This document shows positions 13,880 through 63,644 of a DNA stretch of 64,000 nucleotides, piece by piece. The number at the start of each line of letters is the position of its first letter. The stretch's first letter is position 1. The translations under genes and the position numbers were made by a program. The stretch spans positions 87,575 through 151,574 of the forward strand of contig CALHLC010000012.1 in NCBI GenBank assembly GCA_938034385.1, given 5' to 3'. Source of the DNA: an uncultured Bacteriovoracaceae bacterium. Its GTDB lineage: Bacteria > Bdellovibrionota > Bacteriovoracia > Bacteriovoracales > Bacteriovoracaceae. The notes under the pieces were generated by a model. That model ran no database searches. It saw nothing but the letters and a program-made list of their open reading frames with translations, and was not told where the DNA came from.

Positions 13880-13880
13880 A

Positions 13881-40221: not shown

Positions 40222-40225
40222 TAAA

Positions 40226-45087: not shown

Positions 45088-45090
45088 TAT

Positions 45091-48391: not shown

Positions 48392-48403
48392 AATCTTTCT
48401 CCT

Positions 48404-48799
48404 TTAAAGTTGAAGCATTCTTGCTTTTAAGTTTTCTTTCCACTTAGAAAAACTGCTTGAGTACATTTTTTGAAGATTCGTCATCCCATCTTCTAGGTAC
48501 TCTTTAATTTTTTGTTCATTTAGATTTAAGAGTTTTGCAATGTCTTGAGTGTTAAAGTCTCTCCAGTATCTTAGATATAAGACGAGAAATTCTTCTTGGT
48601 TAAGATCGAACATCATCTCTTGGATGAACTCCCTTTGCTCCAAGCTGAAATTTGCGATGGATTGAGCTTCAGGTGCACTTTGTTTTTTTGCGATTTCTCT
48701 TTCTTTTCTCTGCTTAAGCTTTTTGGCTTCAATTAGGTCAATAGTGTAATTTAATGCACTTGCCATAATTAACCTCAAAGCCCTTTTTGGTTTAAACAT
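48404..48799 (-). CDS. small sigma-70 region-4-like HTH protein
   Basis: LVLYLRYWRDFNTQDIAKLLNLNEQKIKEYLEDGMTNL resembles a sigma70 r4 HTH. At 131 aa it is too short for a full sigma factor. Confidence 0.4.
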   Translation of the reverse strand: MFKPKRALRLIMASALNYTIDLIEAKKLKQRKEREIAKKQSAPEAQSIANFSLEQREFIQEMMFDLNQEEFLVLYLRYWRDFNTQDIAKLLNLNEQKIKEYLEDGMTNLQKMYSSSFSKWKENLKARMLQL

Positions 48800-49243: not shown

Positions 49244-49588
49244 TTAAACTTCGTCTTTTATAAGGCTAAAGTCATTAACTTCAGTCAATGTACAATCGCT
49301 TTCGACTGTAAAAGTAAATACATGAGTTATAATTGCTCCACTATCTGCAACAGAGTCAACAGATGTTGCAGCACTTTTAAAGTTTCCGTTAGTGATATTA
49401 GTTGAAACACGTGGGTTATATACTTGGGTAGTAGGGACTCCCATCCCATTCTTAATATAATCAGCTGTTACTTGCTCAAGTTGATTGTAGACTTTTTTAG
49501 TATTAGTGCTATTAGGTTTGCAGGCTGAAAAGCCTGAAAGACTTTTTAAAATTAAAGAAATAATAAATAAATTTCTCGCAATTCTCAT
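49244..49588 (-). CDS. hypothetical lipoprotein
   Basis: The ATG at 49588 has a GGGAGGAA SD. Lipobox LSGFSAC. Confidence 0.45.
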   Translation of the reverse strand: MRIARNLFIISLILKSLSGFSACKPNSTNTKKVYNQLEQVTADYIKNGMGVPTTQVYNPRVSTNITNGNFKSAATSVDSVADSGAIITHVFTFTVESDCTLTEVNDFSLIKDEV

Positions 49589-49919
49589 GATTTTCCTCCC
49601 TCGTTGATTACCACGAGGTATTAATAGCACAAGATAAAGCGTAATTCACGAGAAAATGAAAAAAGCTTTCTGTATAGCGTAGTTTTTATACTAATATATC
49701 GCTGGGGCCTTTTGCCCTAAAACTGCTTAAATTTGATGGATTTACGAAATTTCAACCACTTGTGCGATCGCTCGGACTTTCTGTACATCCAAGTGCCCTA
49801 GAAAAATTTGATTAAATGCCATTCCCCAGCTTGGGTTTCTTAACGCAACCTTAACTTGAAGAAGACTATTGATATGCTAAAAAACTTTTAAGAATTTTTG
49901 TTTTATATAAAGGGGCAAC

Positions 49920-50237
49920 ATGAAAAAAATCATTATTTTAATTCTACTTACTAGTTCAATTTCATTATTAGCAAATGCTATAAAAATCACTAAAAAAGCA
50001 ACTAGTGTTCAAGTAATTGAAGTCGAGACAAAGACAACTTGCAAGGAAATAGATACCTTCATTGATGATATTGATTTTGACTGCAATATAGCACAACTTA
50101 AAAAAAGTATTTCTACAAAAATTGGAAATATTATCAAAATTGAAGGAATGGATAAGAATTCTAATTATGTTTTAAGTAATAGTGTTGATGATGTGGGTAC
50201 TTATAATATTAAGGTTAGGATTTTATACTATAAATAA
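49920..50237 (+). CDS. small secreted protein
   Basis: Signal peptide MKKIIILILLTSSISLLANA. Confidence 0.4.
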   Translation: MKKIIILILLTSSISLLANAIKITKKATSVQVIEVETKTTCKEIDTFIDDIDFDCNIAQLKKSISTKIGNIIKIEGMDKNSNYVLSNSVDDVGTYNIKVRILYYK

Positions 50238-50280
50238 TAACTGAACGATAATCACTCGATTTCTGAATAATTAAATATTT

Positions 50281-50313
50281 CAAGAACCACTGACTAAATA
50301 GCAGTGGTTCTTG
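50281..50313. terminator. hairpin between convergent genes
   Basis: Perfect 12-bp stem CAAGAACCACTG/CAGTGGTTCTTG with a 9-nt loop. The T tract is weak. Confidence 0.5.
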
Positions 50314-50359
50314 TGTTATAAAAAGTTTGGTTCACAATACACCTCTTTGAAATTCATTT

Positions 50360-51165
50360 TTAAGTGATTATTTCAATCATGCGATTTTCTTGACCATTAT
50401 CTCCGGAATATTCAACAACTTTAGCTTGATTTGTTTGTGGGATAGGTGGTGGCTCAATTTTAAGTGATTTTTCTTGTTCTTTCTTTTCTCTTGAGATTTT
50501 TTTCTGAATTTTAAAAGGGTCATCAAGAAAATATTCTCTTACAGTATCAATTTTTATACTGTTTGCTTTCGTCATCGGAATTCCTTCTGCTTTTGCCATC
50601 TCTTTTTTCATTTCCAAAATTTCTTTTGAGATACTTCCAGTAGAAGTATTGGCAATCCTTGCACTTTCCCGGGAACTAATTCCTTTTATAAAAAGTTGCC
50701 TTATGAGTGTACTTGGACGAGTCTTTTTCCTTCCTAAAACACGACCTTCAGCTTTTACTCTTGCAAGGCCGGCAATTACTCGCTCTCTTATTAAATCGCG
50801 TTCTAACTGCGATAAAGCCCCAACTACAGCAACAAGAGCTTGCCCGATTGCTGTGTTTGTATCAATCTGCTCAGATAAGCTAACAAGAGAGCACTTATTT
50901 GACCTCATTGTTTCAAGGCATCTGAGGAGATGGGAACAAGATCTTGAAATTCTAGAAAAAGAGAATGTGGTTACTTGAATTATTCTCCCGTTCCTTATTT
51001 CGTCCATCATTTGATCTAGTGCTGGCCTCGAATCTTTTGCTCCGGATATTGCTGTATCTTTGAAAACTTTGTAGTTACTAATTTCGTTGTCACGATAATA
51101 TTTTTCAATAGACCTAATCTGACTTTCCATACCCCCTTGCTGAAAATTAGTACTCACTCTTACGT
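50360..51165 (-). pseudogene. resolvase/invertase-type serine recombinase, 5' end severed by RIT insertion
   Basis: The body has resolvase blocks (..SGAKDSRPALDQMM.., SRISRS, ALSQLERDLIRERV) and a C-terminal HTH. The frame reads stop-AQHNVRVSTNFQQ, so the first beta-strand and the start codon are missing here. They are found at 54343-54364. Confidence 0.8.
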
Positions 51166-51183
51166 TATGTTGAGCTCAACATA

Positions 51184-51215
51184 ACGTCAGTTATGTGAAG
51201 TCGTTGGATATGTTG
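51184..51215. repeat. RIT left terminal inverted repeat
   Basis: acgtcaGTTATGTGAAGTCGttggatatgttg matches the reverse complement of 54311-54342 at 29 of 32 positions. Confidence 0.8.
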
Positions 51216-51307
51216 TCAATATGTAAATAATGGACGAATTTTTTGCTGGCTCTCCATTTTAACTAAAAATCGCTCTACATATCATTTACTTAAGAAAGGA
51301 GTAAGTG

Positions 51308-52291
51308 ATGATAAGAGAGGTTGTTACAGATCAGGAAAGGGAGTTTTTCTATGCTAGAAAAAAGCTCCCAAAGCTTTACACTGATTATTTAGATTATTGC
51401 AGGAAAATAAAAAACCTAGCAATAGGTACTATCCAAAATAGAAAGAGACATGTTCTTTCATTTATTTTAGAACACCCAAATAAAGCTTCAGCTTCTAAGG
51501 TTAATAAAATAACACAAGAAGAAATCCAAGAGTATGTCGTAAAAGCGGCGACAAATCTCTCAAGAGAAATGAAAAGAAGTCTTGTCGTTTCCCTTAGAGA
51601 TTTTTTTAGGTTTCTTCACTTAAAAGAGTACACTGAGCTTGATTTGTCTCATTCAGTACCTACGATTACAACTTATAGAATGTCTCGAATCCCACGAACA
51701 ATGCCCTGGGAAACGGTTGAGTTAATTTTAAAAACCATTAATAAAAAAACGTTATCTGGAAAAAGAGATTACGCTATCATTCTTGTATTTGCTCGATACG
51801 GTATAAGAGCATGCCAACTTAGAGAGCTTCGATTGAAAGATATTGATTGGGATAAAAAAACAATAAGATTTTTAGCAATCAAAGGTGGAAATGAAATTAC
51901 TTCACCTCTATTTGATGATGTTGCAAAAGCAATTCTTGCTTATTTTAAAGCTGGGAGAATGAAAGCTTCTGATAAATATGATCATGTGTTTTTAACTTCA
52001 GGGGAATGGGGAAGCAAAGTTATGGGGCAAGTGCCCTTAAGAGAGTCAACCTGGAATATTGTGAGCAGGGCCCTGAAAAAAGCGAAACAACAAGGCTTAA
52101 TTAATCATGCTCAGGGACCTCATGCGATTAGACATGCTTTTGCAACAAAGCTTCTGGATAAAGATACTCCTCTCAAAAATATCTCAGATATGCTTGGCCA
52201 TCGATCTTTAGAGACAACTTTTATTTATACAAAGACCAGCTTAAAGCAAATGAGAAAGTTAACACTAAGATGGCCAGGAAGTTCTCTATGA
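51308..52291 (+). CDS. tyrosine recombinase, RIT subunit A
   Basis: AIRHAFATKLL (HxxR) and GHRSLETTFIYT (Y). An SD precedes the ATG at 51308. Confidence 0.85.
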   Translation: MIREVVTDQEREFFYARKKLPKLYTDYLDYCRKIKNLAIGTIQNRKRHVLSFILEHPNKASASKVNKITQEEIQEYVVKAATNLSREMKRSLVVSLRDFFRFLHLKEYTELDLSHSVPTITTYRMSRIPRTMPWETVELILKTINKKTLSGKRDYAIILVFARYGIRACQLRELRLKDIDWDKKTIRFLAIKGGNEITSPLFDDVAKAILAYFKAGRMKASDKYDHVFLTSGEWGSKVMGQVPLRESTWNIVSRALKKAKQQGLINHAQGPHAIRHAFATKLLDKDTPLKNISDMLGHRSLETTFIYTKTSLKQMRKLTLRWPGSSL

Positions 52292-53262
52292 AAAAGATAG
52301 ATCAAAAGTGGCCTGGGCACCTCGGTGAGCTTATGAAAAAGCATATGGATATGAGAAGAGCTATTGGAAGGGTTGGAACAGCTGATGCTTATACTCTTTA
52401 TAACTTTAATAATTTTTTAATCGAAAATTATCCAAAAATTAAAGTTCCAAATAGAATGGCTATTCTTCACTACATGAAAACTTACTCACACTTAAGTGTT
52501 GGAGGACGTAGAAATAAACTCATTTATATTCGCCAGTTTTGTTTATTCTTAAACCAGCGAGGGATAGAGTGTTATGTTCCTGATAAAACTTTAATTCCAA
52601 AGTATACTTATGAACCTCGATATTATCCTCTTAATGAAAAACAAATCATTCAAATAATGAATCTCATTGAAAATTATAAGAATCACCATAACAAAAAATA
52701 TACAGGGAGAATGTACTCAACCTTTATTGGACTTCTCTGGGCCACGGGACTACGCTCAGGTGAAGCATGCAGGCTAAAGCATGAAGACATTGACCTTGAA
52801 GAAGGATTGATCTTAGTTAAGCAAACCAAGTTCTTTAAAGACAGAATTATTCCAATTTCTAAGACATCAATAGAGGCACTAAAGGATCATTTATCCCTAA
52901 AAGAATCTTTAGGTTTGAATACATCTTCAGATTCATCTTTTTTTCTAAACTCTCAAGGAAGACCACTTTCCGCTCATACTGTTGGCTCAATGTTTGGAAG
53001 GTTTGTGAGAAGAATGAAGATAAAAAAGATCAATGGAAGATATCCTGTTTTACATGACTTGAGACATAACTTTGCAACTCAGTGGATTCATCGTTTTTAC
53101 AAAGATACTGCCAAATATCCTCCCCAATCTTATGTCCCAAAGTTATCGACATATTTAGGTCATACAACGTTATTTTCTAGCCAGTATTATATTCATCCAG
53201 ATTTTGACCTTCTTCAAAGTGCATCTAAAAATTTTAACTTAGAGGATTTATATGAAAAATAA
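52270..53262 (+). CDS. tyrosine recombinase, RIT subunit B
   Basis: GLRSGEACRL (R), LHDLRHNFATQ and GHTTLFSSQYYIH. Overlaps the previous gene by 22 nt. Confidence 0.85.
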   Translation: MARKFSMKKIDQKWPGHLGELMKKHMDMRRAIGRVGTADAYTLYNFNNFLIENYPKIKVPNRMAILHYMKTYSHLSVGGRRNKLIYIRQFCLFLNQRGIECYVPDKTLIPKYTYEPRYYPLNEKQIIQIMNLIENYKNHHNKKYTGRMYSTFIGLLWATGLRSGEACRLKHEDIDLEEGLILVKQTKFFKDRIIPISKTSIEALKDHLSLKESLGLNTSSDSSFFLNSQGRPLSAHTVGSMFGRFVRRMKIKKINGRYPVLHDLRHNFATQWIHRFYKDTAKYPPQSYVPKLSTYLGHTTLFSSQYYIHPDFDLLQSASKNFNLEDLYEK

Positions 53263-54232
53263 TTTAATGCTTCTAACTCAAAACTTTTTCCAAAAATACT
53301 TACCAAACGAAAGAGGCTTTAGTCAGCATACTGTTTACTCTTATCGAGATACACTTAAGGTTTATTTTAGTTTTTTATCTCAAAAAAACAAAAAGCCTAA
53401 GCTTGACGATATGACGGCCCAAAATGTTATCAATTTTTTAGATTTTTTAAAAAGCACTAGAAATAACTCAGTTAAGACACAAAACCAAAGACTGGCTGTT
53501 CTAAAATGCTTCTATGAGTATTTACGTGCTCACGACCCGATAAGATCTAATCAATATAGTCGAATTGAACATATAAAAATGAAGAGAGCTCCTAGAAGGC
53601 CGATTGAGTACTTTGACAAAGAAGAGGTTAAAGCAATATTAGATTCAGTCGATCGAGGTAGTCGCAATGGTGATAGAGACTATGCTTTGTTAAAGCTTCT
53701 TTATAATAGTGGTGCTCGTGTTCAAGAGCTTTGTGACTTACGAGTTAGAGATATCAGAGCATATCCACCTTACCTTGTTGAGCTAACAGGAAAAGGAAGG
53801 AAAACGAGAAAGGTCCCATTATGGAAAGATACTGTTCTTTCGCTCGAGTCACTAATAAAGGGGCGAGATAGTTTAGCCCCTGTTTTTTGTTATCAGGAAA
53901 AGCCACTTGGCAGGTTTGGAGTTCGATACATCGTCAAAAAGCATTGCAAGAAAGCATCACAACAACAGATCAGTTTGCAAGGCAAGAAGATTGGTCCTCA
54001 TACTTTTAGGCATACAACGGCAATGCACCTTCTTCAAAGCGGAACAGACATCAGTGTTATAAAAACTTGGTTAGGGCATGTCGATCTTAATACGACTCAT
54101 GGATACATTGAAATTGACCTTGAGATGAAAAGAAAGGCAATGAATAAGATAAGTAAAGTTGCTTCTAAAAACACAGAAAATCTTTTAAAGAAAAATAAAG
54201 ATATTGTCAGTTGGTTATCTAATTTTAAATAA
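53252..54232 (+). CDS. tyrosine recombinase, RIT subunit C
   Basis: GARVQELCDL (R), PHTFRHTTAMHLL and GHVDLNTTHGYIE. Overlaps the previous gene by 11 nt. Confidence 0.85.
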   Translation: MKNNLMLLTQNFFQKYLPNERGFSQHTVYSYRDTLKVYFSFLSQKNKKPKLDDMTAQNVINFLDFLKSTRNNSVKTQNQRLAVLKCFYEYLRAHDPIRSNQYSRIEHIKMKRAPRRPIEYFDKEEVKAILDSVDRGSRNGDRDYALLKLLYNSGARVQELCDLRVRDIRAYPPYLVELTGKGRKTRKVPLWKDTVLSLESLIKGRDSLAPVFCYQEKPLGRFGVRYIVKKHCKKASQQQISLQGKKIGPHTFRHTTAMHLLQSGTDISVIKTWLGHVDLNTTHGYIEIDLEMKRKAMNKISKVASKNTENLLKKNKDIVSWLSNFK

Positions 54233-54310
54233 AAAACAAAAAGATATGTGAAGTAATTTTCTGTGTTAAGAGTTTTTTTACGCTGACTGGTTGTATTTAT
54301 TAAAAGTTTG

Positions 54311-54342
54311 CAACATATCAAGCGACTTCACATAACTTACGT
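54311..54342. repeat. RIT right terminal inverted repeat
   Basis: caacatatcaagCGACTTCACATAACttacgt, the partner of 51184-51215. Confidence 0.8.
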
Positions 54343-54364
54343 AGCTTGCATGATATCTGTTCAT
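54343..54364 (-). pseudogene. orphaned 5' fragment (MNRYHAS..) of the serine recombinase gene
   Basis: The ATG at 54364 overlaps the stop of the upstream HTH gene (TAATG). Joining it across the 7-bp repeat gives MNRYHASYVRVSTNFQQ in frame. Confidence 0.75.
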
Positions 54365-54912
54365 TAATCCTCCGTTTTTGTGGGATTAAGTTTTGTTATT
54401 AGTTTTATAATCCCTTCATAGAGTGGTGAAATGGAAACCTGAGTGGAAACCGTTTCCACTTGGTTTCCATTTTTACACTTATTAGAGAGGTAGTTTTTTT
54501 CAATGAAAAATTTTAAATTTTCTATCGCTCTGTTTCTTATCTTGGAGACAGCTGTGTGTGAAATTTTTAATTCCTTAGCAAGCTGTCTCATTGAAAGATT
54601 CCCGAAGTATAAACCGGTAATAACAGTTTTTTGCTTAGGACAAAGACTTTGAATACTTTTATCTAAAATTTCTTTGAAGTGAATATACTCTTTGTCTGTT
54701 TCGATATTTTGAAATAGAGTTGAAATTTGTATCTTCTCAGCTCTATCATCGAAGTATTCTTCATTATGAATTTGTCGCTCTTTTTGGTTGATCTCAATAG
54801 TTTTTAAATACCGTTCCCAAGTTTCTGGGTTCCAAGTTTTTACGGCTTCTTTTAGATCTGTATCTGAAAGTGCTTGCCCTTTTTCATCTAACCACGGAAA
54901 TTCTTTGTTCAT
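54364..54912 (-). CDS. sigma-70 region-4-like HTH protein
   Basis: The ATG at 54912 has an AAGGAG SD. QKTVITGLYFGNLSMRQLAKELKISHTAVSKIRNRAIENL is an r4-type HTH. Confidence 0.5.
   Translation of the reverse strand: MNKEFPWLDEKGQALSDTDLKEAVKTWNPETWERYLKTIEINQKERQIHNEEYFDDRAEKIQISTLFQNIETDKEYIHFKEILDKSIQSLCPKQKTVITGLYFGNLSMRQLAKELKISHTAVSKIRNRAIENLKFFIEKNYLSNKCKNGNQVETVSTQVSISPLYEGIIKLITKLNPTKTED
54432..54470. repeat. GGAAAC/GTTTCC four-half-site dyad, copy B
   Basis: TGGAAACCTGAGTGGAAACCGTTTCCACTTGGTTTCCAT, a near-perfect palindrome inside the 3' end of the HTH gene and about 70 bp upstream of the recombinase ATG. Confidence 0.7.
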
Positions 54913-55048
54913 TGCATTGCTCCTTATGTTGCGCCGAGTAATTCGACTGTTGTTAAGTGCAAACACTAAGTACAAATCTGGCACCAAGAATTTTTAAAAC
55001 CCGGCCTTTTAAAAACAGTTAGTTAGAAGTTTGAAGAAAAATATCCAT

Positions 55049-55082
55049 ATCAATATTGATTTGACTTCGTATCAAAATTGAT
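55049..55082. promoter_or_regulatory. twin palindromic operator-like sites ATCAA-NN-TTGAT
   Basis: ATCAATATTGAT (55049-55060) and ATCAAAATTGAT (55071-55082). Their centres are 22 bp apart, and they lie 32 bp upstream of the operon start. Confidence 0.45.
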
Positions 55083-55113: not shown

Positions 55114-56475
55114 ATGTCGTTAGACGTTTTGTTAATTGAAGACAATCCTCATACTGCTCTTAATTTTCAAGAGATGTTTGAGGATGAGGACTATGGACAC
55201 AGAGTTTCAGTGGCAAAATCCACGACAGTGGCAAAGTCACTTATTCAAAAAAGAAACTTTGATATTGCTTTTGTTGATCTTGATCTCGAAAAGAAAAGAG
55301 CAGGCTTTGATGTTGTACCACTTTTAAAAGATAAAAAAGTTTATACAGTTATCCTTTCTGGTCATGATGAAGATGAGTATGTTGAAAAAGGCTATGGACT
55401 CAATTGTAACGCTTATTTAACTAAACCTTATGATTTAGAGCAAATCGAAAATATTTTCACGACTCTGGATCGCCATAATGAATTTATTCTTTCTTACAGA
55501 GAGTTATTGAAGACAGATTATTTAACTCGAAATGAATTTACTCTCAAAGAGCTGAAGAAAGCAGAAAACTATTTATTAAGAGATGATATTAAGTTGTTTA
55601 TCTCAGGTGAAACGGGTGTCGGAAAAACGGCATTATCGAAAGTTCTTCACTTGGCTCAGTTCAAAAACTTTAATAACTATGTTCATGTAAACTGTGCCCA
55701 AATAGAAAGTACTCTTCTCAAGTCTGAATTATTTGGAGCTAAAAAAGGATCACACTCTGAGGCAAAAACTGATAAAGCAGGGCTGATTGTTGGAGCTAAT
55801 GGAGGAACTCTTCATTTGGATGAAATCGCCTGTTTAGACCTTGAAGCTCAGGCAATGCTTCTAACTTTTCTCGATACAGGAATCGTTCAACCCCTTGGTG
55901 GTGAAAAGAAAGATGAAGTAAAGATCAAGACTAAGATTATTTGTTCGACGAACGAAAGCTTAGAAAAAATGATTCAAGAGAAGAAGTTTAGAGAAGATCT
56001 TTATCATCGAATTATGGGAAAAGTGCTAGAAGTACCATCTTTAAAAGAAAGACCTGAAGATGTGAAGCTTTTTGTTGATCTTGAGATTGAAAAATTAAAT
56101 AGGAAAAAAGTATTTCGATTCAGTAAAGCTGCAAGAGAAAAACTCTATGCATATAACTGGTATGGAAACATTAGAGAGCTAAAAGAATACTTTAAAGGAA
56201 TTTCTGATGGGAAGGGATTTCTTAATGTCTCTGATTTACCTGCTTGGATTGTTAATAACTTTAATAAAAATAATATTCCAACAAGGTCTGTCCTAACTGA
56301 TGAGCAGATCGCTTATGTCCAAGATAATGGACTAAATAAATTTTTAGAAAAAATCTCATCTGAGGTGATTGAGCACTTTTATCACAAGAATGGACGCAAG
56401 TTTAATAGAACTAAGAATGAACTGGGAATAACTCAGTACAATTTAAAAAAGTATCTTGAGGGTCATTCAAAATGA
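55114..56475 (+). CDS. NtrC-family response regulator (REC + AAA+ + Fis-type HTH) with degenerate GAFTGA
   Basis: REC (FVDLDL, LTKP). Walker A GETGVGKT and Walker B GGTLHLDEI. ELFGAKKGSHSEA replaces ELFGHEKGAFTGA. C-terminal HTH NELGITQYNLKKYL. Confidence 0.8.
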   Translation: MSLDVLLIEDNPHTALNFQEMFEDEDYGHRVSVAKSTTVAKSLIQKRNFDIAFVDLDLEKKRAGFDVVPLLKDKKVYTVILSGHDEDEYVEKGYGLNCNAYLTKPYDLEQIENIFTTLDRHNEFILSYRELLKTDYLTRNEFTLKELKKAENYLLRDDIKLFISGETGVGKTALSKVLHLAQFKNFNNYVHVNCAQIESTLLKSELFGAKKGSHSEAKTDKAGLIVGANGGTLHLDEIACLDLEAQAMLLTFLDTGIVQPLGGEKKDEVKIKTKIICSTNESLEKMIQEKKFREDLYHRIMGKVLEVPSLKERPEDVKLFVDLEIEKLNRKKVFRFSKAAREKLYAYNWYGNIRELKEYFKGISDGKGFLNVSDLPAWIVNNFNKNNIPTRSVLTDEQIAYVQDNGLNKFLEKISSEVIEHFYHKNGRKFNRTKNELGITQYNLKKYLEGHSK

Positions 56476-56720
56476 GTAAAAATTTGTATGAATCACAAGA
56501 TATCAAAGAGATTAGAGAAAGTTTACATTGGCTTTCGACTAGAATTCAAGATTTGAATACAACGAACTTACTGGTTAGAAAATATTTAGGGCGTGAGGAT
56601 AAAGAAGATTTTTGTAAGAAAAGCTTGGATGCCTCTTTAGAGGCCAGAGAACGAATGACTAAAGAGTTAAAAAATATAAGATCAAAATTGAAGGTATTAA
56701 GAGAGTACAAAGATGTTTAA
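56472..56720 (+). CDS. small coiled-coil protein
   Basis: 82 aa with an ATGA overlap upstream and an 8-nt overlap downstream. Confidence 0.4.
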   Translation: MSKNLYESQDIKEIRESLHWLSTRIQDLNTTNLLVRKYLGREDKEDFCKKSLDASLEARERMTKELKNIRSKLKVLREYKDV

Positions 56721-58191
56721 GTTTTTTGTCACTCTCATGTTCACTCTTTCTTCTCTACATGTTTTTGGAAACAGCGATATTATGCTAATTCCTGTTAAAG
56801 AGATTCCTAAGAAAATCGACTCTTTTTACGGAAATGATTTAACTCTTAATAAAATTATCAATCAATTAGCAGAAGGGCTTGTTAAACTTGATGATTCGCT
56901 TTATCCAAGGCCTGCAGTAGCAAAATCTTGGAAAATTGATGAAAGAAATAAGAGTATCGAATTTAGTTTAGATACAGGCAAAAAGTTTCACGATGGTTCA
57001 ACAGTTAAAAGCATTGATGTTTTTAATGTGCTCCAACAAAGCTTGGCTAAGAAAAGTGATTTAACTAGCCAGATATCAGAATTTGAAAGCTGTAAAACAA
57101 TGAGAAAATGCGAAGGTTTTAGTGAGATTGATCAAAAAAGCTTCAAACTAAAATTAAATGATACAAACTTTATTGGTTTTTTGAGAAAGCTCTCAAATAT
57201 AGAGGGAGTCATATTCAAGAGAGATAGTTCTCGATTCATTGGAACTGGGCCTTATAAGCTAGAGAAATTAACAAAATCTCAGGTTGTCTTGAATCGAGTA
57301 AGTAAATCATATTTCAAAAAAATTATATTCAAGAAAATGAACGATAAGGATGCTCTAAAGTCTTTTTTAGCTGGGAAGGTCGATTTTATAAGTGATAGCG
57401 ATTTTAAGGTTTCAAAATCTGACTTAAACAATCCTTTAGTTAAGGAAGAAAATACGGTTCTTACTTTTGGGTTAGTCTTTAACTTAAAGAAAGGAGTTTT
57501 CAAATCGAAGCATAATAGAAAAGTGCTATCAGTGGCAATTGATAAAGAAAAACTCGTTAAGCTCTATTCTCACCCTGCGATTGTCGCTAATGGATTAATA
57601 CCAAAAGGTTTTCAAGGACATGTTCGTAATACTGAAAAGAGTAAAGGTTTTGGAAGATTAAAGCTCTATGGATCAAAGAAAGTTATCTTTGGATTAAGGC
57701 ACAAGTACAAAGGGAATAAAGCAATTACAGATTATCTCCCGAGAGTCATGAAGTCTTTGGGCTTAGATGTGAAAGTTGTCTTTGATGATTTTGGAGCAAT
57801 TTTAAAAGATTTAAAGAAGCCTAGTGGGAAGTATCATCTTACGATCAAGGGTGAGGCCCCTCGATACTTTGATTCCGCTTCTGTATTTCGTCCTTACGTT
57901 TATGGTCAATTTCCAAACGTAACTAATTATAAGAACGATGAGTTCACTAAGCTTTATTTTGATTCTGAAAGCTTGCTCGGAAAAAAGAAACTTATGGCCC
58001 TTGGTAGAATGGAAGAAATTCTTAGAGAAGAGGTTCCAGTTATCCCTCTTTTTCATCCTGTTTTTACGAAGTGGTATCAAAGTTCAATGAATATCAATAA
58101 AGATTTGAAATCCTCAATAAAGTTTTGGGATTTTCCGTTTTATTCCTACTCAAGGAATAAAATTAACACTGAAAAAGGAGGTCGACTATGA
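56713..58191 (+). CDS. family-5 (peptide/nickel) ABC substrate-binding protein, orphan
   Basis: Signal peptide and the GTGPYKLEK signature of SBP_bac_5. No ABC permease or ATPase genes are in the operon. Confidence 0.75.
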   Translation: MFKFFVTLMFTLSSLHVFGNSDIMLIPVKEIPKKIDSFYGNDLTLNKIINQLAEGLVKLDDSLYPRPAVAKSWKIDERNKSIEFSLDTGKKFHDGSTVKSIDVFNVLQQSLAKKSDLTSQISEFESCKTMRKCEGFSEIDQKSFKLKLNDTNFIGFLRKLSNIEGVIFKRDSSRFIGTGPYKLEKLTKSQVVLNRVSKSYFKKIIFKKMNDKDALKSFLAGKVDFISDSDFKVSKSDLNNPLVKEENTVLTFGLVFNLKKGVFKSKHNRKVLSVAIDKEKLVKLYSHPAIVANGLIPKGFQGHVRNTEKSKGFGRLKLYGSKKVIFGLRHKYKGNKAITDYLPRVMKSLGLDVKVVFDDFGAILKDLKKPSGKYHLTIKGEAPRYFDSASVFRPYVYGQFPNVTNYKNDEFTKLYFDSESLLGKKKLMALGRMEEILREEVPVIPLFHPVFTKWYQSSMNINKDLKSSIKFWDFPFYSYSRNKINTEKGGRL

Positions 58192-58286
58192 CTACACTTG
58201 AGCAGAATGAACAGTTGGAAGATGTGATTATTAATCTGGACATCTTCGATGATGAAATTATGTCTGAGGCTAGAGTCAGCGCATAA
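58188..58286 (+). CDS. 32-aa acidic peptide (candidate precursor/signal peptide): MTTLEQNEQLEDVIINLDIFDDEIMSEARVSA
   Basis: Below the ORF-track size cutoff. AAAGGAGG SD 6 nt upstream of the ATG. ATGA overlap with the SBP stop. Ends 8 nt before the HExxH gene. Confidence 0.55.
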   Translation: MTTLEQNEQLEDVIINLDIFDDEIMSEARVSA

Positions 58287-58294
58287 TTGAGGCA

Positions 58295-59149
58295 ATGATG
58301 AAAATGGAAGCAATGTTTAATATTGTACTTGTAGAACGTTTTATCGCTTCTATACGGAAGAGGGGGGAGATTTCTCTCCCTTCTTCTCTTTCATCCAAAA
58401 ATGTAGAAACAATGAGTACTCCTTTCTTGGCTTGGATTTTTTCGCAGAGAAAAAACGATATTGATCTTAAAATCATTCAAAAAACCTATGAACTTGATCA
58501 AAAAAGATCTAATTTTGTTGTTGGACATAGTATTTTTGAAGATCAAAATACTTCGAATTACCCAGAGCTTGAAGAAAAGTATCTTAAGGCAAGAAAAATC
58601 ATCAAATCCTATTGGCCTGAGTTAGACTGTTTGATCGAAGCAATTGGTCCAAGAGTATCCTTTCTGCCAAATGATAGTTTAACGTATGAGTCTTCGTCTG
58701 ATCCTAAAACATTTGGAGAGATTATCTTCAATATGGAGCATCCTTGTGTTTTAAGATGGGTTGAAATTCTTACCCATGAAATTGGGCACATGTACCTTAA
58801 TATTCTATTGGCCACAAGCCATATGACTCCTGAAAACAAATCTAAATTAGCAAAGAGGAAATTCTCTAATATTAGACAAGAGGAAAGACCTCTTATTGGT
58901 ATTGTCCATGGTGTTTTTGTTCAGGCATGGATGATGATAATGGCTGCAAAAGTTATTCAAGGAAGTAATTACAACGATGATCATATTGGAGCCGTTAGAA
59001 CTATTGATCGTTTTAAGAAATCTTTCTTAGAAGATTATAGGACAATATACGATGAAGGTCTGAGCGATATTGTAACGGGGTTTTCTAGCTTTGTTGACCA
59101 AGGATTCAATTTTTTGAAAGAGACAGAGGAGGTACTTTGTGAAGTCTAA
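58295..59149 (+). CDS. HExxH-motif peptide-modification-type protein
   Basis: The THEIGHMYLN HExxH motif is followed by ..RQEERPLIGIVHGVFVQAW... This resembles the TIGR04267 / alpha-KG-HExxH family pattern (HExxH ... RP..G..H). No signal peptide. Confidence 0.55.
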   Translation: MMKMEAMFNIVLVERFIASIRKRGEISLPSSLSSKNVETMSTPFLAWIFSQRKNDIDLKIIQKTYELDQKRSNFVVGHSIFEDQNTSNYPELEEKYLKARKIIKSYWPELDCLIEAIGPRVSFLPNDSLTYESSSDPKTFGEIIFNMEHPCVLRWVEILTHEIGHMYLNILLATSHMTPENKSKLAKRKFSNIRQEERPLIGIVHGVFVQAWMMIMAAKVIQGSNYNDDHIGAVRTIDRFKKSFLEDYRTIYDEGLSDIVTGFSSFVDQGFNFLKETEEVLCEV

Positions 59150-60404
59150 CTCTGTCATAAAAAGTCTTGGTATCTATTATGCTCTAAACGCATCGGCTGT
59201 TCAGTTTAACTCGATTGTTTTTCGAGTGGTTGTTGGTTTTTTAGTTGGGGCTCCGCTTAAAGCAGTAGCTTATATCACCTGTATTGAATATCTCCTGAAC
59301 TTTATTTTAGAAGTACCTACTGGGAGAATTGCTGACAAGTATGGTCGAATTCCTATGGCCATTATAGGTCATGTTTCGGTGATTCTTGGCTTGAGTTGTG
59401 GTTACGTTGCTGCCAGCGGTTTTATTAACGATGAAAATACAATACACATTTTTTATATGTTGCATGGAGTTTTTATCGGATTTTGTCGCCCTTTGATCTC
59501 TGGATCTATTGATGGGTTTTATAAAGATGCGATGAAGAGAAAAGGTGAAAGTGAAGCTGACCTCGGTTTTTCCATTAGTAGCAAATATGGAAGGTATCTT
59601 ACAACGATCTATATCACTTTGGCTTTTATTGTTTTGATTGTTTTTGATCAAACGCTTGGGGCTCAACATGCTTTTGTTCCAGGGATATTACTTTGGGTAA
59701 TGACAACTCATCGCTTATATAAGGATTACTTGAGCTTTGGGGATTCCTCTATAAAAACGGAAACACCTATTAAGAAAATCTTTCAAGTTTTTAAGCAGAA
59801 TAGAAATATTCTAGTTTCGACTTATTATAATTTTGCTCAGTGGGTAATTAAGTATCTTGTCTTTGGGTATTTTTTGGTAACTTTTGGACGAGAGTTTGCT
59901 GGACAATCAAAAAGTTTACAGTGGATGACGATGATTGCCTTTATGCTTGGTTCACAAGGTTTTGGGTGGATTTTAAAATCGGTAGTTATCCCTAAAATGA
60001 TTTATAAAATGAGCGAAAAACAATATTTAACTACTTTTTTAGCGGCAAGCTTTTTCGCTGGGTTGCTAGGCCTTAGTACACTTGATACTTCTAATCTTTC
60101 GGTGAACTTTACTGTAGCTGTTTTTATTTTTGGAATGTTCACTTTTGCAGCAATGTCTGCTGTAGAAAGATATTCTAAGGATAAATTAACAAAAGAGGTC
60201 GCTTCGACTGATTATGCGATGTTTTTAAGTATCCAAAATATGCCAGGTTATACTTTCGTTGTGCTTCATGGGTTGTATTATATTTTCTTGGGAACGGGGA
60301 CACCGAGCTTGAATGAAATATTTTCTCAGGTCGCTATCACTTCGATTATGTTCATTATTGGGGTTTATATTCTTGATAAGAGTAAAGAGAGAGGTGCAGT
60401 ATGA
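59139..60404 (+). CDS. MFS transporter
   Basis: About 12 TM helices, MFS motif A-like PTGRIADKYGR and a GTG start overlapping the upstream gene. Confidence 0.75.
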   Translation: MKSNSVIKSLGIYYALNASAVQFNSIVFRVVVGFLVGAPLKAVAYITCIEYLLNFILEVPTGRIADKYGRIPMAIIGHVSVILGLSCGYVAASGFINDENTIHIFYMLHGVFIGFCRPLISGSIDGFYKDAMKRKGESEADLGFSISSKYGRYLTTIYITLAFIVLIVFDQTLGAQHAFVPGILLWVMTTHRLYKDYLSFGDSSIKTETPIKKIFQVFKQNRNILVSTYYNFAQWVIKYLVFGYFLVTFGREFAGQSKSLQWMTMIAFMLGSQGFGWILKSVVIPKMIYKMSEKQYLTTFLAASFFAGLLGLSTLDTSNLSVNFTVAVFIFGMFTFAAMSAVERYSKDKLTKEVASTDYAMFLSIQNMPGYTFVVLHGLYYIFLGTGTPSLNEIFSQVAITSIMFIIGVYILDKSKERGAV

Positions 60405-61939
60405 AAAAGCATTTCTCAAAACAGGTTCTTTTTTATTCATTAGTTTTATTTACTGTTGTCTTGGTAATTAACTTCTCATTTTTATTCTGGATGCACCAAA
60501 AGGCAGAATCTAATAAGTTTGATCTTTTGACCAAGCAGCTTGGAGCAGGAATTAGGCCCCATGTTGCCTCACAGGTAGAAATAGCAGTGAGATCACAACT
60601 AAAAAACATTCTGAATGAGCCTACAGTGCTTGCGATTCAGGTAGATTCAGATAACTTTCAAATTCTTGAAGAAAAAGAACATTTCAACGAAAAAAGTAGT
60701 GGGATTTTATCTGACTACCTTTGGGCCAGTGGTACATTTCCTACGTATGAAAACTCTAACGAAAAATTCTCTGTAAAAGTTGCTTATGAGAATAGTTTAG
60801 CTAGAAAAACTCTCTTTGATGCACTTGGATTATCAGGTTTGCTCTTATTTTTAATAGGGTTCGTTTATTGGCTATTTGTTTCTAGGGTTGTAACAAAGGA
60901 AACTTTGGAGATTGAAAAAAGTAACATGGCGAAGAGAATTTTTCATGTACTCAAGTCTGAATTTATTCCTTTGATCAATCTTGAGGATGAGAAGCACTTC
61001 CAAAGGTTTTCAAATAAGAAGAAGAGGTTAATGCGACTTAGCTTTTATCAGAGAATTTTGGGCAGTATAAGCAAGTTTGTTACTTTTGATGGAGCTGAAT
61101 ATCACTCCCTTGAAAAATATGAAATTATTAAGCTTGAGAAATTTCTCAAAGAATTTGTAGAAGCTAAAAGAATTGAGCATGTGAAGAGGAATATCAAGAT
61201 TACTGTTTCTAAAATGGTTAAAGATTACTCAGTAAAAACCGTTTCAAGTGAGCTATGGCAAGCGTTATCAAATTTGGTCAATAATTCTTATGAAGCAATT
61301 AAAGAGAGTGGAAGTATTGAAATCTCTGTAAGTGAAGTCGATAAAGATTTAATCGAAATCATTGTCAAAGATGATGGTAAGGGAATTCCTAAAGACCAGT
61401 TAGACCAAATATTAACTGAAGGTTATTCTTATGAAAAAAGTAATGGAAATGGAATTGGCTTACCTCAATCCATAAATAAAATAAGAAGCTTGGGAGGAGA
61501 GTTAATAATTGATTCTGAAGAAGGTGTAGGAACAAAAGTTTCAATCACTTTGATTAAAGAAAATGATAATAATCTAAGCAAAGACAGGGTTGATCTTATT
61601 TTGATCGACGATGCTTTAAATAGAAGAATTAACGCTGAAGAGATGGCAGAGGAAAGTGGGTATTCGATGCTGTCTTTCGAGAGTTATGACTCTTGTCTTG
61701 AGTACCTCAAGAGTAATCCCTTAGACTCATCAACACCCATCTTTGGTGACTCTGAAATGTGTGATGGAAAAGCTAAAGGAGAAATGAGATCAAAGGATCT
61801 CTACGATATGGGATATAAAAATATAGCTATAGTTACTGGTGCCGAATCGGTTGAAATTAGTAAGATGGGTGAGTTACCTTGGATATCCAGAGTGATTTCT
61901 AAGAACAGCATTGGCTCTGACTACACGGAGTTGATGTGA
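60401..61939 (+). CDS. hybrid sensor histidine kinase (2 TM + HATPase + C-terminal REC-like)
   Basis: Two TM helices flank a periplasmic loop of about 120 aa. H-box-like FHVLKSEFIPL, N-box NLVNNSYEAI, G1 DDGKGIP and G2 GNGIGL. The C-terminus DLILIDD...GDSEM...VTGA...ISK is REC-like. Confidence 0.75.
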   Translation: MKKHFSKQVLFYSLVLFTVVLVINFSFLFWMHQKAESNKFDLLTKQLGAGIRPHVASQVEIAVRSQLKNILNEPTVLAIQVDSDNFQILEEKEHFNEKSSGILSDYLWASGTFPTYENSNEKFSVKVAYENSLARKTLFDALGLSGLLLFLIGFVYWLFVSRVVTKETLEIEKSNMAKRIFHVLKSEFIPLINLEDEKHFQRFSNKKKRLMRLSFYQRILGSISKFVTFDGAEYHSLEKYEIIKLEKFLKEFVEAKRIEHVKRNIKITVSKMVKDYSVKTVSSELWQALSNLVNNSYEAIKESGSIEISVSEVDKDLIEIIVKDDGKGIPKDQLDQILTEGYSYEKSNGNGIGLPQSINKIRSLGGELIIDSEEGVGTKVSITLIKENDNNLSKDRVDLILIDDALNRRINAEEMAEESGYSMLSFESYDSCLEYLKSNPLDSSTPIFGDSEMCDGKAKGEMRSKDLYDMGYKNIAIVTGAESVEISKMGELPWISRVISKNSIGSDYTELM

Positions 61940-62529
61940 GAGTTGAGCTTAGAGACTGGAAAAAAAAAGATCTCAATTTATATACGGAATGGTCTAAGCC
62001 GGGGCATAAATGGCAAGAGTTTGATGGACCTTATTATAAAAGGTCTTTTGAAAAGTTAGAAAGCAATATTGCCAAGTTAGAAGAAAAAATAATAAATCAA
62101 GGGTTCTCTTATCCTAGAGCTAGACAAGTTATTTCTTTGAAGGAAACCGATGATTTTATTGGAACTGTGAGCTGTTATTGGGAATCAATTGAAACAAATT
62201 GGTTGTGTGCAGGCATAAGTTTATATGATGAAAAATATTGGGGTAAAGGGCTTGGTTATGAAGCCTTGGGTTTATGGGTTGACTATCTCTTTGAAAGCTA
62301 TCCTGACATTATCAGACTCGACCTAAGAACTTGGTCTGGAAATATGGGGATGATTAAACTTGCAGAGAAACTTGGTTTTAAATTGGAAGCGAGGTTCAGA
62401 AAAGCAAGGATAGTCAATGGCGAGTACTTTGACAGCCTTGGGTACGGAGTACTTAAAGATGAATGGTTAGATAGTTTCCCTGAAGGGTTCGCTGGTTTAA
62501 TTTCAGACAAAGGAAGATTAAAAAAATGA
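61936..62529 (+). CDS. RimJ/RimL-type GNAT N-acetyltransferase
   Basis: Acetyltransf_3-like layout with WGKGLGYEAL. GTGA overlap with the kinase gene. Confidence 0.65.
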   Translation: MRVELRDWKKKDLNLYTEWSKPGHKWQEFDGPYYKRSFEKLESNIAKLEEKIINQGFSYPRARQVISLKETDDFIGTVSCYWESIETNWLCAGISLYDEKYWGKGLGYEALGLWVDYLFESYPDIIRLDLRTWSGNMGMIKLAEKLGFKLEARFRKARIVNGEYFDSLGYGVLKDEWLDSFPEGFAGLISDKGRLKK

Positions 62530-62918
62530 TTAAATACTCTTTTTCAAAACCAGATACAGATGAAACTTTACAGCTTTATAAAGAGTCAGGTATCTACAAT
62601 GAACAGTGGAATAGAGACAGGATGGATAAAACTCTTGAAAACTCCGATATCCTTCTTTGTTGTTATGATGATAAAAAGCTTATTGGAATTGCTAGAGGCA
62701 TAACAGATTTTCACTGGATTGCTCATTTATCACACCTTGCAGTTCATCCTGATTATCAAAGACAGGGATTTGGTAAAAAGCTTGTTCAGATGGTGAATGA
62801 AAAACTTGGAGATGGGGTTGCCCTGATGGTTCATTCCGTGCCTGAAGCAAAAAATTTTTATCAAGGCTTAGGTTTCGAGCCTTATGATGATGTTTATCGA
62901 ATACCTAGGAAGATATGA
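62526..62918 (+). CDS. GNAT N-acetyltransferase
   Basis: Motif A VHPDYQRQGFGKKLV. ATGA overlap. Confidence 0.7.
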   Translation: MIKYSFSKPDTDETLQLYKESGIYNEQWNRDRMDKTLENSDILLCCYDDKKLIGIARGITDFHWIAHLSHLAVHPDYQRQGFGKKLVQMVNEKLGDGVALMVHSVPEAKNFYQGLGFEPYDDVYRIPRKI

Positions 62919-62948
62919 TTGAATACTTAGCTTTAGGAGTTCTTATTG

Positions 62949-63644
62949 ATGGATAAACATATATTAGCAATGGGCGGCGGTGGATTTTCAATGGAGCCAG
63001 ACAACTTAAAGCTCGATAAGTATTTATTGTCTTTAGTAAAAAAAGATAAGCCTAAAGTATGTTTTGTTAGTACTGCTAGTGGAGATTCAAAAGAGTACAT
63101 TGAAAGGTTTTATAATTCCTTTTCTAATCTTCTATGCGAACCCAGTAATTTGGCTTTATACAGACCTCCAGAAGAAGATCTTCGAGAGTTTGTTATGGAT
63201 AAAGATATATTTTATGTTGGTGGTGGAAATACTCGAAACCTTCTTGTCCTATGGAAAGAATGGGGCTTGGATTTATTATTAAAAGAGGCTTTGGAAAAAG
63301 GAGCAGTCCTCGCAGGAATTAGTGCTGGGTCTATTTGCTGGTTTGATCAAGGATTAACTGATTCGGTAACAGGAAAGCTACTTCCTTTAAGCTGTCTAGG
63401 TATTTTAAAAGGTAGTAATTGCCCACATTACCATGGAGAAGAAAAAAGAAGACCGTCATATCAGAAATCGATTTTAAATGGCTCGATGAAAGATGGTATA
63501 GCCTGTGATGATGGAGTTGCTGCACACTTTATAAATGGAGAGCTAAGTAAGTTTGTATCGTCCAGAAAGGGTGCAAATGCGTACAAAGTGGAATTAACGG
63601 AAATCGGCATATTAGAGACTAGAATAAAGCCTGAACTTCTGTAA
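62949..63644 (+). CDS. S51 family peptidase (PepE/cyanophycinase-like)
   Basis: ILAMGGGGF N-terminus, nucleophile block LAGISAGSICWF and a His near CPHYH. Confidence 0.65.
   Translation: MDKHILAMGGGGFSMEPDNLKLDKYLLSLVKKDKPKVCFVSTASGDSKEYIERFYNSFSNLLCEPSNLALYRPPEEDLREFVMDKDIFYVGGGNTRNLLVLWKEWGLDLLLKEALEKGAVLAGISAGSICWFDQGLTDSVTGKLLPLSCLGILKGSNCPHYHGEEKRRPSYQKSILNGSMKDGIACDDGVAAHFINGELSKFVSSRKGANAYKVELTEIGILETRIKPELL

Follow-up and report, generated by a model that had tools for sequence, protein, structure and literature searches.

A stretch of 64,000 nucleotides from an uncultured Bacteriovoracaceae bacterium (assembly GCA_938034385.1, contig CALHLC010000012.1, positions 87,575 to 151,574 of the forward strand; called the window below, always at its full length) carries at 55114-61939 a cassette of seven genes. 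These encode a response regulator, a small protein with an invariant histidine, a family-5 solute-binding protein (SBP), a 32-aa peptide, an enzyme assigned to the Fe/alpha-ketoglutarate (aKG) oxygenases of the HExxH type, a major facilitator superfamily (MFS) transporter and a hybrid sensor kinase. By gene content, the cassette lies within an integrative conjugative element (ICE) and is divergent from the type IV secretion genes of that element. The locus is interpreted here as the signalling and regulatory module of an ICE in a Bacteriovoracia-type predator, in which a loop built on a modified peptide would control conjugation, and this interpretation is given a probability of about 0.5. It draws on findings established by computation: which genes are present and conserved, the families of the enzyme and of the peptide, the hybrid nature of the kinase, the setting in an ICE and the sigma-54 promoters of relatives. 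The related loci used for comparison (designated by L numbers) were gathered by protein look-ups and by scanning genomes and metagenomes with a 10-sequence alignment.

Conserved core, precursor peptide and HExxH enzyme

The cassette genes all read on the forward strand. The first encodes an NtrC-type response regulator (55114-56475; Response_reg, Sigma54_activat and AAA_lid_14 by Pfam) and is followed by genes for an 82-aa two-helix protein (56472-56720; no family match, AlphaFold2 (AF2) model) and the family-5 SBP (56713-58191; SBP_bac_5, E 7e-35). Next are the precursor peptide gene (58188-58286; recognized by a conserved core motif, a Shine-Dalgarno sequence and an ATGA overlap), the gene for the stand-alone aKG-HExxH-type oxygenase (58295-59149; TIGR04267.2, PDB profile and predicted fold) and those for the MFS transporter (59139-60404; MFS_1, E 1.4e-9) and the hybrid sensor histidine kinase (60401-61939; HATPase_c, with receiver residues identified by alignment). 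Two GNAT genes continue the series on the same strand (GNAT1, 61936-62529; GNAT2, 62526-62918), and Acetyltransf_3 / Acetyltransf_10 matches are found across both. The junctions overlap by 4, 8, 4, 11, 4, 4 and 4 nt in order, with an 8-nt gap between the peptide and HExxH genes. Starts called independently for this DNA in another assembly (L019) agree with these, except for the HExxH gene (58298 versus 58295). The nine co-directional open reading frames (ORFs), the seven overlaps and the twin palindromes upstream all lie where the first-pass annotation of this DNA had placed them, and a search of the proteins with hidden Markov models (HMMs) returns the families it had named: a receiver with a sigma-54 AAA+ domain, SBP_bac_5, TIGR04267, MFS_1, HATPase_c and two GNATs.

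Genes for the SBP, the HExxH enzyme, the MFS transporter and the kinase are found together in every context with enough flanking sequence, as determined by tBLASTn and Pfam context tables (the window, L001, L002, L006-L010, L013, L016, L021 and L023). These contexts span 27-88% enzyme identity, 34-64% GC and three gene orders. The set is kept at 27% enzyme identity and 64% GC in L002, the order becomes peptide-HExxH-MFS-SBP-kinase in L010, and the kinase gene is on the opposite strand in L021. In the Bacteriovoracia loci, conservation extends to the regulator, an ORF of 65-82 aa and a divergent gene for a protein with sigma-70 region 4 only. A gene-neighbourhood comparison had been suggested as a check of whether transporter, binding protein, kinase and small ORF accompany the enzyme; the first three co-occur with it in every related context, and the peptide does so in all but L018 and L021. 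Because the core set stays together even when gene order changes, a system that makes, exports and senses its own product is favoured over a toxin. The modified-peptide locus of the first-pass annotation, left there as either a signal or a toxin, thereby gains on its signalling side and loses on its toxin and immunity side.

The 32-aa peptide (MTTLEQNEQLEDVIINLDIFDDEIMSEARVSA) is encoded directly 5' of the HExxH gene, and its C-terminal part is a conserved 17-residue block (INLDIFDDEIMSEARVS). The core h[N/S]L.h....hh[G/S]E.R[AGV]S recurs in peptides at this position in 13 related stretches that span 34-64% GC and yield 11 distinct peptides; it appears once per locus and solely just 5' of the HExxH gene, which agrees with the expectation that a small ORF would be conserved beside homologues of the enzyme. 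When the 11 distinct peptides are aligned, Ser31 never varies, and conservation reaches at least 90% at Leu17, Glu27 and Arg29. The ORFs of relatives are 19-41 aa long, with an N-terminal extension of 1 to ~21 residues across the family (~14 in the window) and a variable tail of 1-9 residues after the conserved x-R-x-S box, and some of the peptides, at 19 aa, are nearly leaderless. Net charge runs from -8 in the window to +9 in relatives, so the acidity that the first-pass annotation had emphasized is a local trait and not one of the family.

A strong Shine-Dalgarno sequence (AAAGGAGG) lies 7 nt 5' of the peptide start, and the start codon overlaps the SBP stop codon (ATGA), an arrangement that indicates translational coupling of the peptide gene to the SBP gene. 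In the relative L020, the peptide gene is identical at 99/99 nt compared with 89.3% identity overall. It falls within a 185-nt run of 100% identity (58108-58292) that spans the last 84 nt of the SBP gene, the Shine-Dalgarno sequence and the entire peptide ORF; the next-longest identical run in the 3.9-kb comparison is 76 nt. Judged by this conservation, the 32-aa ORF is a real gene. As in clusters for peptides that are synthesized ribosomally and modified after translation (RiPPs), a short precursor gene adjoins the gene for a modifying enzyme and is conserved with it (exceptions L018 and L021); the other hallmark of such clusters, a leader and core with a protease, is missing, in that no leader-removing protease is conserved in the related loci. 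In L021 (8503-13605) and L018 (1-1502), the HExxH gene directly follows the SBP gene and leaves no space for a peptide gene, and a search for the motif elsewhere in the L018, L021 and L022 loci found none.

Family membership of the HExxH protein, as proposed in the first-pass annotation, is borne out by HMM, PDB profile and predicted fold. Residues 99-222 match TIGR04267.2 at 43.5 bits (E 3.3e-11), a small margin over the cut-off of 40, and the protein carries the metal motif H161-E162-x-x-H165. Exhaustive searching with HMMER delimits a compact clade: ~36 clusters have E<1e-10, with proteins of 270-290 aa, and beyond them there is a gap to 4e-8 before the wider HExxH family. Across 27 clade members, residues E132, S133, S135, H161, E162, H165, R198, P199 and H205 do not vary. 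The sole match of the clade profile in the PDB is 8s5f (the ChlH HExxH domain, of ChlB; E 2e-5), with which the SxSD, HExxH and RPxxGxxH motifs of the clade align (HEHRH and RPPSGLLH there). The AF2 model has a predicted local distance difference test score (pLDDT) of 93.5, and in a Foldseek search against the PDB the chains of 8s5f occupy ranks 1-4 (E 4e-8, TM 0.65-0.68, probability 1.0), followed by SjiH and by nothing else below E 0.1. Sequence identity to 8s5f is only 16-17%. Both the profile and the predicted fold thus place the protein in the aKG-HExxH (TIGR04267 / IPR026337) family of peptide oxygenases. Enzymes of this family are Fe/aKG oxygenases that hydroxylate precursor peptides at the beta position of Asp, His, Phe, Gln or Pro, stand-alone members acting on adjoining precursors have precedents, and PflC/PosC also cleave off a conserved ARMD tetrapeptide at the C-terminus by oxidation and are able to hydrolyse there as well (PMC12636437, PMC13060819).

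The conserved unit ends at the kinase and not at the second GNAT. The nine-gene operon of the first-pass annotation accordingly stands as a description of layout and overlaps, and gives way as a unit of conservation, as the GNAT genes recur nowhere among the relatives. Downstream of the GNATs lies a Peptidase_S51 (PepE/cyanophycinase-like) gene (62946-63644; Pfam), and the next gene after it, just past the window end, encodes an APH-type kinase (L019 15372-16256). Neither GNAT1 nor GNAT2, nor the S51 or APH gene, has a homologue in ten related loci (tBLASTn, E 1e-3), and all four were rejected as parts of the system on this basis. From this distribution the two GNATs look like local cargo, and the S51 and APH-type genes are probably cargo of the ICE; the microcin-C-like export and immunity set suggested earlier loses its footing. 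An APH-family gene is also present in L023, with no detectable homology to the one beyond the window. A DUF4423 gene and its neighbour were considered as conserved accessories in L001 and L002, where the neighbour proteins proved unrelated, and the recurrence was treated as coincidence. In L006, a cyclodipeptide synthase gene (CDPS, E 3e-63; 13216-13983, reverse strand) lies ~0.9 kb 3' of the kinase gene. Comparison of the window with L020 reveals an excess of synonymous changes, such as 138 synonymous versus 38 non-synonymous codons in the MFS gene, and the core ORFs are all intact and appear to be under purifying selection. No radical SAM, YcaO, lanthipeptide or ThiF gene was found near the cassette in a domain search of the neighbourhood, which matches the absence of such partners reported in the first-pass annotation.

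Proposed reception, probable phosphorelay and control region

The N-terminus of the SBP (MFKFFVTLMFTLSSLHVFGN) resembles a signal peptide. No ABC permease or ATPase that could serve this protein is encoded in the window flank or in any related locus. Its gene is present in every context, being duplicated in L002 and L021 and moved 3' of the MFS gene in L010; the second SBP5 gene of L021 is located after the MFS gene. The orphan SBP is proposed to be the receptor for the exported peptide. In each of the 14 related loci in which this flank is retained, the MFS gene comes directly after the HExxH gene, with 29-44% identity between the proteins, and its product is proposed to be the peptide exporter.

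Transmembrane helices of the kinase are located at residues 9-27 and 142-160, where they flank a periplasmic loop of ~115 aa. An alignment of nine kinases preserves His182, the N, G1 and G2 boxes and the C-terminal receiver residues D403/D404, D450, T479 and K501, and the kinases of L008 and L021 also give a weak Response_reg match. As judged by these residues the protein is a true hybrid kinase, as the first-pass annotation had called it. In L023, the receiver is instead a separate 109-aa protein that aligns to residues 447-509 of the window kinase (E 8e-6), and the kinase is non-hybrid.

A hybrid kinase requires a His-phosphotransfer step to reach a response regulator. A candidate for this step is encoded by a 65-82 aa ORF, which seven loci have between the genes for the regulator and the SBP and which in L023 adjoins the regulator gene. 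In one alignment of these proteins His19 is the sole invariant residue besides the start Met, and in a second it is the sole one outright. AF2 models the 82-aa protein of the window as a helical hairpin (pLDDT 89), which replaces the coiled coil that had been suggested for it. Identification as an Hpt protein was attempted and rejected, since Pfam (all members, E up to 10), PDB profile, AF2 with Foldseek and hhalign all returned nothing specific. Its position, its invariant His and the logic of hybrid kinases make the protein a candidate for the H2 phosphotransfer step that would link the kinase receiver to the regulator. L023 (13411-15405, reverse strand) has a regulator, a 62-aa His protein and a 109-aa lone receiver joined by 4-8 nt overlaps beside its non-hybrid kinase, and this splitting off of the receiver by domain fission supports a four-step relay. 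The combination of a hybrid kinase with a small protein bearing an invariant His points to a probable relay of the LuxPQ/LuxU/LuxO kind.

The regulator has a receiver with D55, an AAA+ domain and a C-terminal helix-turn-helix (HTH). Its GAFTGA motif reads GSHSEA in the window (residues 212-217, 55747-55764) and also in the relative L020 (~88-89% identical). The motif is canonical in L006, L013, L016 and L021 and variant in L001, L007 and L008. In the window and in L001, the loci where it is most degenerate, the best promoter candidate also has no -12 GC.

Upstream of the regulator gene, the divergent control region contains the twin palindromes ATCAATATTGAT and ATCAAAATTGAT (55049-55082), which are spaced 22 bp centre to centre and lie 32-65 bp 5' of the regulator start. 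Their shared sequence, ATCAAnnTTGAT, occurs at 55049-55060 and 55071-55082 and nowhere else in the 64 kb, where 0.42 matches are expected by chance. Dyad repeats particular to each related locus stand at the corresponding place 5' of the regulator gene. The twin palindromes of the window are, on this pattern, a probable operator or enhancer. Sigma-54 promoters with at most one mismatch face transfer or regulator genes in L007, L008 and L021, and in L021 a site with two mismatches precedes the SBP operon. A sigma-54 promoter was rejected for the window, where the two best candidates, TGGTGC-N5-TTGTA (54971-54986, reverse strand) and TGGCAC-N5-ATTTT (54979-54994, forward strand), are both without the -12 GC. 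The L010 locus has, at 6591-7464 on the reverse strand, a sigma-54-like promoter (TGGTAC-N5-TTGCA) that is directed away from the peptide operon and at a type IV pilin-like gene (N_methyl/ComP_DUS). Small Cys-rich, zinc-ribbon-like ORFs are present in the control regions of L006 (4339-4581, reverse strand), L008 (4229-4516, reverse strand) and L023 (7987-8445). In L006 and L008 they are placed between the sigma70_r4 gene and the sigma-54 promoter, and in L023 one precedes the SBP gene; the window has no counterpart.

Within the operon, a 14-bp RNA hairpin is predicted at 58356-58387 on the forward strand, ~70 nt past the peptide stop and within the 5' end of the HExxH ORF. Its folding energy of -23 to -24 kcal/mol compares with a shuffle mean of -12.9. 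The arms are read as Arg/Lys/Gly/Glu codons on the 5' side and Ser/Leu/Pro codons on the 3' side. In L020 the hairpin differs by three substitutions, all of which keep the fold; two preserve stem pairing and one is in the loop. Equivalent hairpins of -23 to -46 kcal/mol are found in L001, L006, L007, L008, L009 and L014. An intergenic GC stem with a U-tract takes their place in L002, and no equivalent was found in L010, L013 or L016. When the hairpins were analyzed together by RNAalifold, the MAFFT alignment was poor and the consensus energy weak, with five pairs showing double-sided changes, and the per-sequence folds are the stronger evidence. The element is a candidate attenuator or transcript-stabilizing structure, and its placement suggests that transcripts ending after the peptide gene would accumulate relative to the downstream genes.

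The conjugative element around the cassette

The left boundary of the element is marked by the chromosomal genes thyA, EamA and fpg (left of 35524; housekeeping genes by Pfam), with a tyrosine integrase gene next to fpg (35524-36831, reverse strand; Phage_integrase). This is followed by a gene for a Replic_Relax protein (37989-38765, reverse strand), whose match is weak at 21.3 bits against a cut-off of 25.3, and by the conjugation genes (38719-48799, reverse strand; Pfam). In order, the latter encode an FtsK-type coupling protein, TrbI/VirB10, TrbL/VirB6, an N6/N4 DNA methylase, VirB4, a VirB3-like protein, the TrbC/VirB2 pilin and a sigma70_r4 protein. The Pfam matches to TrbL and TrbC are weak, and FtsK_SpoIIIE, TrbI and VirB4/TraC were also matched. 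Integrase, type IV secretion, coupling and relaxase-type (weak) genes thus form one block at 35.5-48.1 kb beside housekeeping genes, and this content identifies the element as an ICE. The locus had been described as self-contained, which is misleading for a cassette that is part of an ICE and divergently paired with the regulator and type IV secretion genes of the element.

The first gene on the transfer side of the control region (54364-54912, reverse strand) is divergent from the cassette and encodes an HTH protein with sigma-70 region 4 only (Sigma70_r4, E 2e-7, without region 2). Homologues are found on the opposite strand upstream of the regulator gene in L001, L006, L007, L008, L013 and L016. 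Directly 3' of the sigma_r4 gene in L006, L007 and L008 are homologues of the 45091-48799 segment (sigma_r4, pilin, VirB3 and VirB4), and L016 and L021 have TraU-type transfer genes at that position. L021 is also bounded by integrase and excisionase genes, and L023 by relaxase, excisionase and integrase genes. From this arrangement, the conjugation genes at 38719-48799 are the probable regulated target.

Only ~270 bp separate the two sigma_r4 genes of L006 and of L008. Between the two sigma70_r4 genes of the window lies an insertion of ~5.5 kb with small ORFs (49244-54321; ORFs and Pfam), in which Pfam matches identify a serine recombinase (50360-51157, reverse strand) and three tyrosine recombinases with overlapping starts and stops (51305-54232, forward strand). 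The insertion looks like a 'recombinase in trio' mobile insertion inside the regulatory region of the ICE. Rfam and tRNA scans of the region gave no matches, a tRNA gene is absent from the entire window by tRNA scan, and a search of a plasmid database returned one weak Bacillus match and nothing more.

Proposed circuit, alternatives and comparison with known systems

The circuit proposed here, whose steps are all inferred, begins with the 32-aa peptide as the substrate of the adjoining Fe/aKG HExxH oxygenase. The enzyme would hydroxylate a conserved core residue or trim the C-terminus oxidatively as PflC does. The modified peptide would then be exported by the MFS transporter and captured in the periplasm by the orphan family-5 SBP, which would signal to the hybrid kinase via its ~115-aa periplasmic loop. 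Phosphate would pass from His182 of the kinase to its receiver Asp450, on to His19 of the 82-aa protein and finally to Asp55 of the regulator. The regulator would bind the dyad repeats in the divergent control region and, in relatives, would drive a sigma-54 promoter that points at sigma70_r4 regulators and type IV secretion genes. Owing to the hairpin that follows the peptide gene, transcript levels of this gene (and of the SBP gene) would probably be raised relative to those of the genes for the enzyme, exporter and kinase. As the cassette adjoins DNA-transfer genes, it may be a peptide 'pheromone' switch for gene transfer. The wider proposition, that ICEs of Bacteriovoracia communicate by an oxidized ribosomal peptide via an MFS exporter, an OppA-like SBP, a four-step relay and a sigma-54 switch of type IV secretion genes, is offered tentatively, with odds somewhat below even.

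Several observations weigh against this circuit. On the output side, the GAFTGA motif of the window regulator is degenerate, the cassette lies apart from the transfer operon with ~5.5 kb of foreign DNA in between, and no sigma-54 promoter with at most two mismatches was found between 47 and 64 kb of the window. In the relay, the 82-aa protein has no Hpt, HisKA, DHp or Spo0B match by Pfam, PDB profile or Foldseek, and the 62-aa His protein of L023 matches the small-protein profile only at E 0.04 (hhalign). On the input side, L018 and L021 have no recognizable peptide gene next to the HExxH gene, and peptide charge shows no covariation with SBP or enzyme charge over ten loci (rho -0.20 and +0.24), which led to rejection of charge complementarity between the peptide and either protein. 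The distant contexts L002 and L010 are without the regulator and transfer genes nearby, so the link to conjugation is limited to the Bacteriovoracia ICE subset and does not extend to the entire enzyme clade. The relatives are all metagenome-assembled genomes or contigs from metagenomes, and there may be redundancy among them (L008 and L015).

The output side in particular invites the explanation that the circuit in this genome is a decaying or rewired remnant that has lost control of transfer. The GSHSEA motif and the missing sigma-54 promoter are consistent with this view, as are the recombinase-trio insertion between the sigma_r4 genes and the lack of the small zinc-ribbon ORF of relatives. 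All seven core ORFs are intact, however, with a synonymous excess relative to L020 and a perfectly conserved peptide gene, and the retention of GSHSEA in L020 indicates that it is not a recent lesion; loss of the circuit is on these grounds considered rather doubtful. A more limited statement is that the output arm in this genome looks altered, given GSHSEA, the lack of a sigma-54 promoter and the insertion, and may be rewired or weakened. A different question concerns only the modification step, where the enzyme might be a (metallo)protease or an oxidative backbone cleaver that takes off the variable C-terminal residues beyond the invariant Ser or the ExR[AGV]S box. PflC and PosC oxidatively remove their C-terminal ARMD and can also hydrolyse there, the x-R-x-S box of the peptides is followed by 1-9 variable residues, and no separate protease is conserved. 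Most characterized aKG-HExxH members are nonetheless beta-hydroxylases of Asp, His, Phe, Gln or Pro, and such chemistry is considered rather unlikely here; it is in any case compatible with the signalling model.

Two further explanations assign the peptide another purpose. If it were an antimicrobial or toxic RiPP, the hydroxylated product would be a weapon, the MFS transporter would provide export and self-protection, the GNATs and S51 peptidase would act as microcin-C-like immunity, and the two-component system would regulate production only. Antibiotic pathways, such as those for the biphenomycins and the pfl/pos clusters of Pseudomonas, do include enzymes of the aKG-HExxH type, a GNAT and transporters are likewise encoded in pfl, the GNAT genes of the window are overlap-coupled to the kinase gene, and a predator could plausibly use such a peptide. 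With GNAT1, GNAT2, S51 and APH all lacking homologues in related loci, however, there is no conserved immunity set. The conserved partners are a transporter-less periplasmic SBP and a sensor kinase, which fit sensing better than killing; some of the peptides are nearly leaderless, no protease is conserved with them, and the cassette sits in the control region of transfer genes. A weapon therefore seems quite unlikely. Alternatively, the SBP and kinase could sense an external peptide derived from prey, cell wall or recipient, with the peptide, oxygenase and MFS transporter of the cassette doing something else, for example modulating or antagonizing that sensing from inside the cell or in the periplasm. 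Family-5 SBPs bind many peptides, murein peptides included, and inhibitor peptides have precedents on pheromone plasmids. L018 and L021 keep the SBP, HExxH and MFS genes in the absence of a recognizable peptide gene, and L002 and L021 each have two SBP genes. This explanation is judged improbable in view of the overlap of the peptide start with the SBP stop, a junction within the most conserved DNA block, and of the joint travel of peptide, enzyme, exporter, SBP and kinase through three gene orders.

If the self-sensing, modified-peptide circuit holds, it would be the first signalling role for the aKG-HExxH family and a peptide-pheromone-controlled ICE outside the Firmicutes. The enzyme's need for O2, Fe and aKG would make production of the signal depend on the metabolic state of the cell. 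Among Gram-positive bacteria, peptide signalling between cells has been well documented; it is rare among Gram-negative ones, and the gene exchange of predatory bacteria is poorly understood. The cassette would connect RiPP enzymology, with a new role for aKG-HExxH oxygenases, to quorum sensing, with a LuxPQ-like reader of a peptide, and to mobile-element biology, where it would provide self-recognition or density control of conjugation in predatory bacteria. It offers testable material in the form of a 17-residue core, a single enzyme, one SBP, a candidate minimal phosphotransfer protein and a defined probable operator. Even if the model is wrong, the clade is a compact system for studying enzyme action on very short, nearly leaderless substrates.

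No description of this cassette architecture was found in the searchable literature; the parts are of known kinds and their arrangement is new. The enzyme resembles the aKG-HExxH RiPP oxygenases ChlBH/ChlH (8s5f), BpmH, PflC/PosC and PesO in its TIGR04267 match, its SxSD, HExxH and RPxxGxxH motifs and its predicted fold, and its gene likewise adjoins a short precursor gene and a transporter gene. It stands alone as PflC and PesO do, and the cluster lacks a protease as pfl does. Unlike the known enzymes, it belongs to a separate small clade with no radical SAM, MNIO or other maturase and with precursors of 19-41 aa; its constant partners are a periplasmic SBP and a sensor kinase, and the Bacteriovoracia loci are on conjugative elements. 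The microcin C cluster is comparable in that an MFS transporter (MccC), a GNAT (MccE) and a peptidase (MccF) are encoded close together, as are the window's MFS, RimL-like GNAT and peptidase genes. The window differs in having no ThiF/MccB-type adenylyltransferase and in that its peptidase is of family S51, whereas MccF is of family S66, and its GNAT and peptidase are absent from all related loci.

On the sensing side, the closest likeness is to LuxP/LuxQ-LuxU-LuxO of Vibrio, which also comprises a transporter-less periplasmic SBP, a hybrid kinase, a small His relay protein (a candidate one in the cassette) and a regulator of sigma-54-type domain architecture. The ligand of the cassette would be a ribosomal peptide and not AI-2, and its SBP is of family 5 (SBP_bac_5) and not of the family 1, ribose-binding-like type of LuxP, so that the likeness to LuxPQ would be one of operation and not of family membership. 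The periplasmic part of the kinase is a loop of ~115 aa where LuxQ has tandem PAS domains, the candidate relay hairpin of 65-82 aa has no detectable Hpt similarity, and all genes of the cassette, including those for signal synthesis and export, are in one operon, unlike those of the Lux relay. The agrBDCA and comQXPA cassettes of Firmicutes similarly unite a precursor peptide, a single modifying enzyme, a sensor kinase and a regulator; the cassette differs from them in its Gram-negative host, Fe/aKG oxygenase and location on an ICE, and in the dedicated MFS exporter, detection by an SBP and multi-step relay that are proposed for it. To our knowledge, pheromone control of conjugation involves unmodified, imported peptides. 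In pCF10 and pAD1 (PrgZ/TraC) and in ICEBs1 (RapI-PhrI), as proposed for the cassette, a mobile element encodes a peptide signal system for its own transfer genes, and PrgZ and TraC, both encoded on the elements, are OppA-like proteins that bind peptides and, like the SBP described here, are of family 5. Those elements use unmodified peptides that are imported via Opp and act on cytoplasmic receptors, whereas the peptide of the cassette is probably modified, there is no permease and the signal would cross the membrane through the kinase. In overall logic the cassette resembles a make-modify-sense system of the agr/comQXPA kind, apparently wired as LuxP/LuxQ/LuxU/LuxO and carried on an element like the enterococcal pheromone plasmids.

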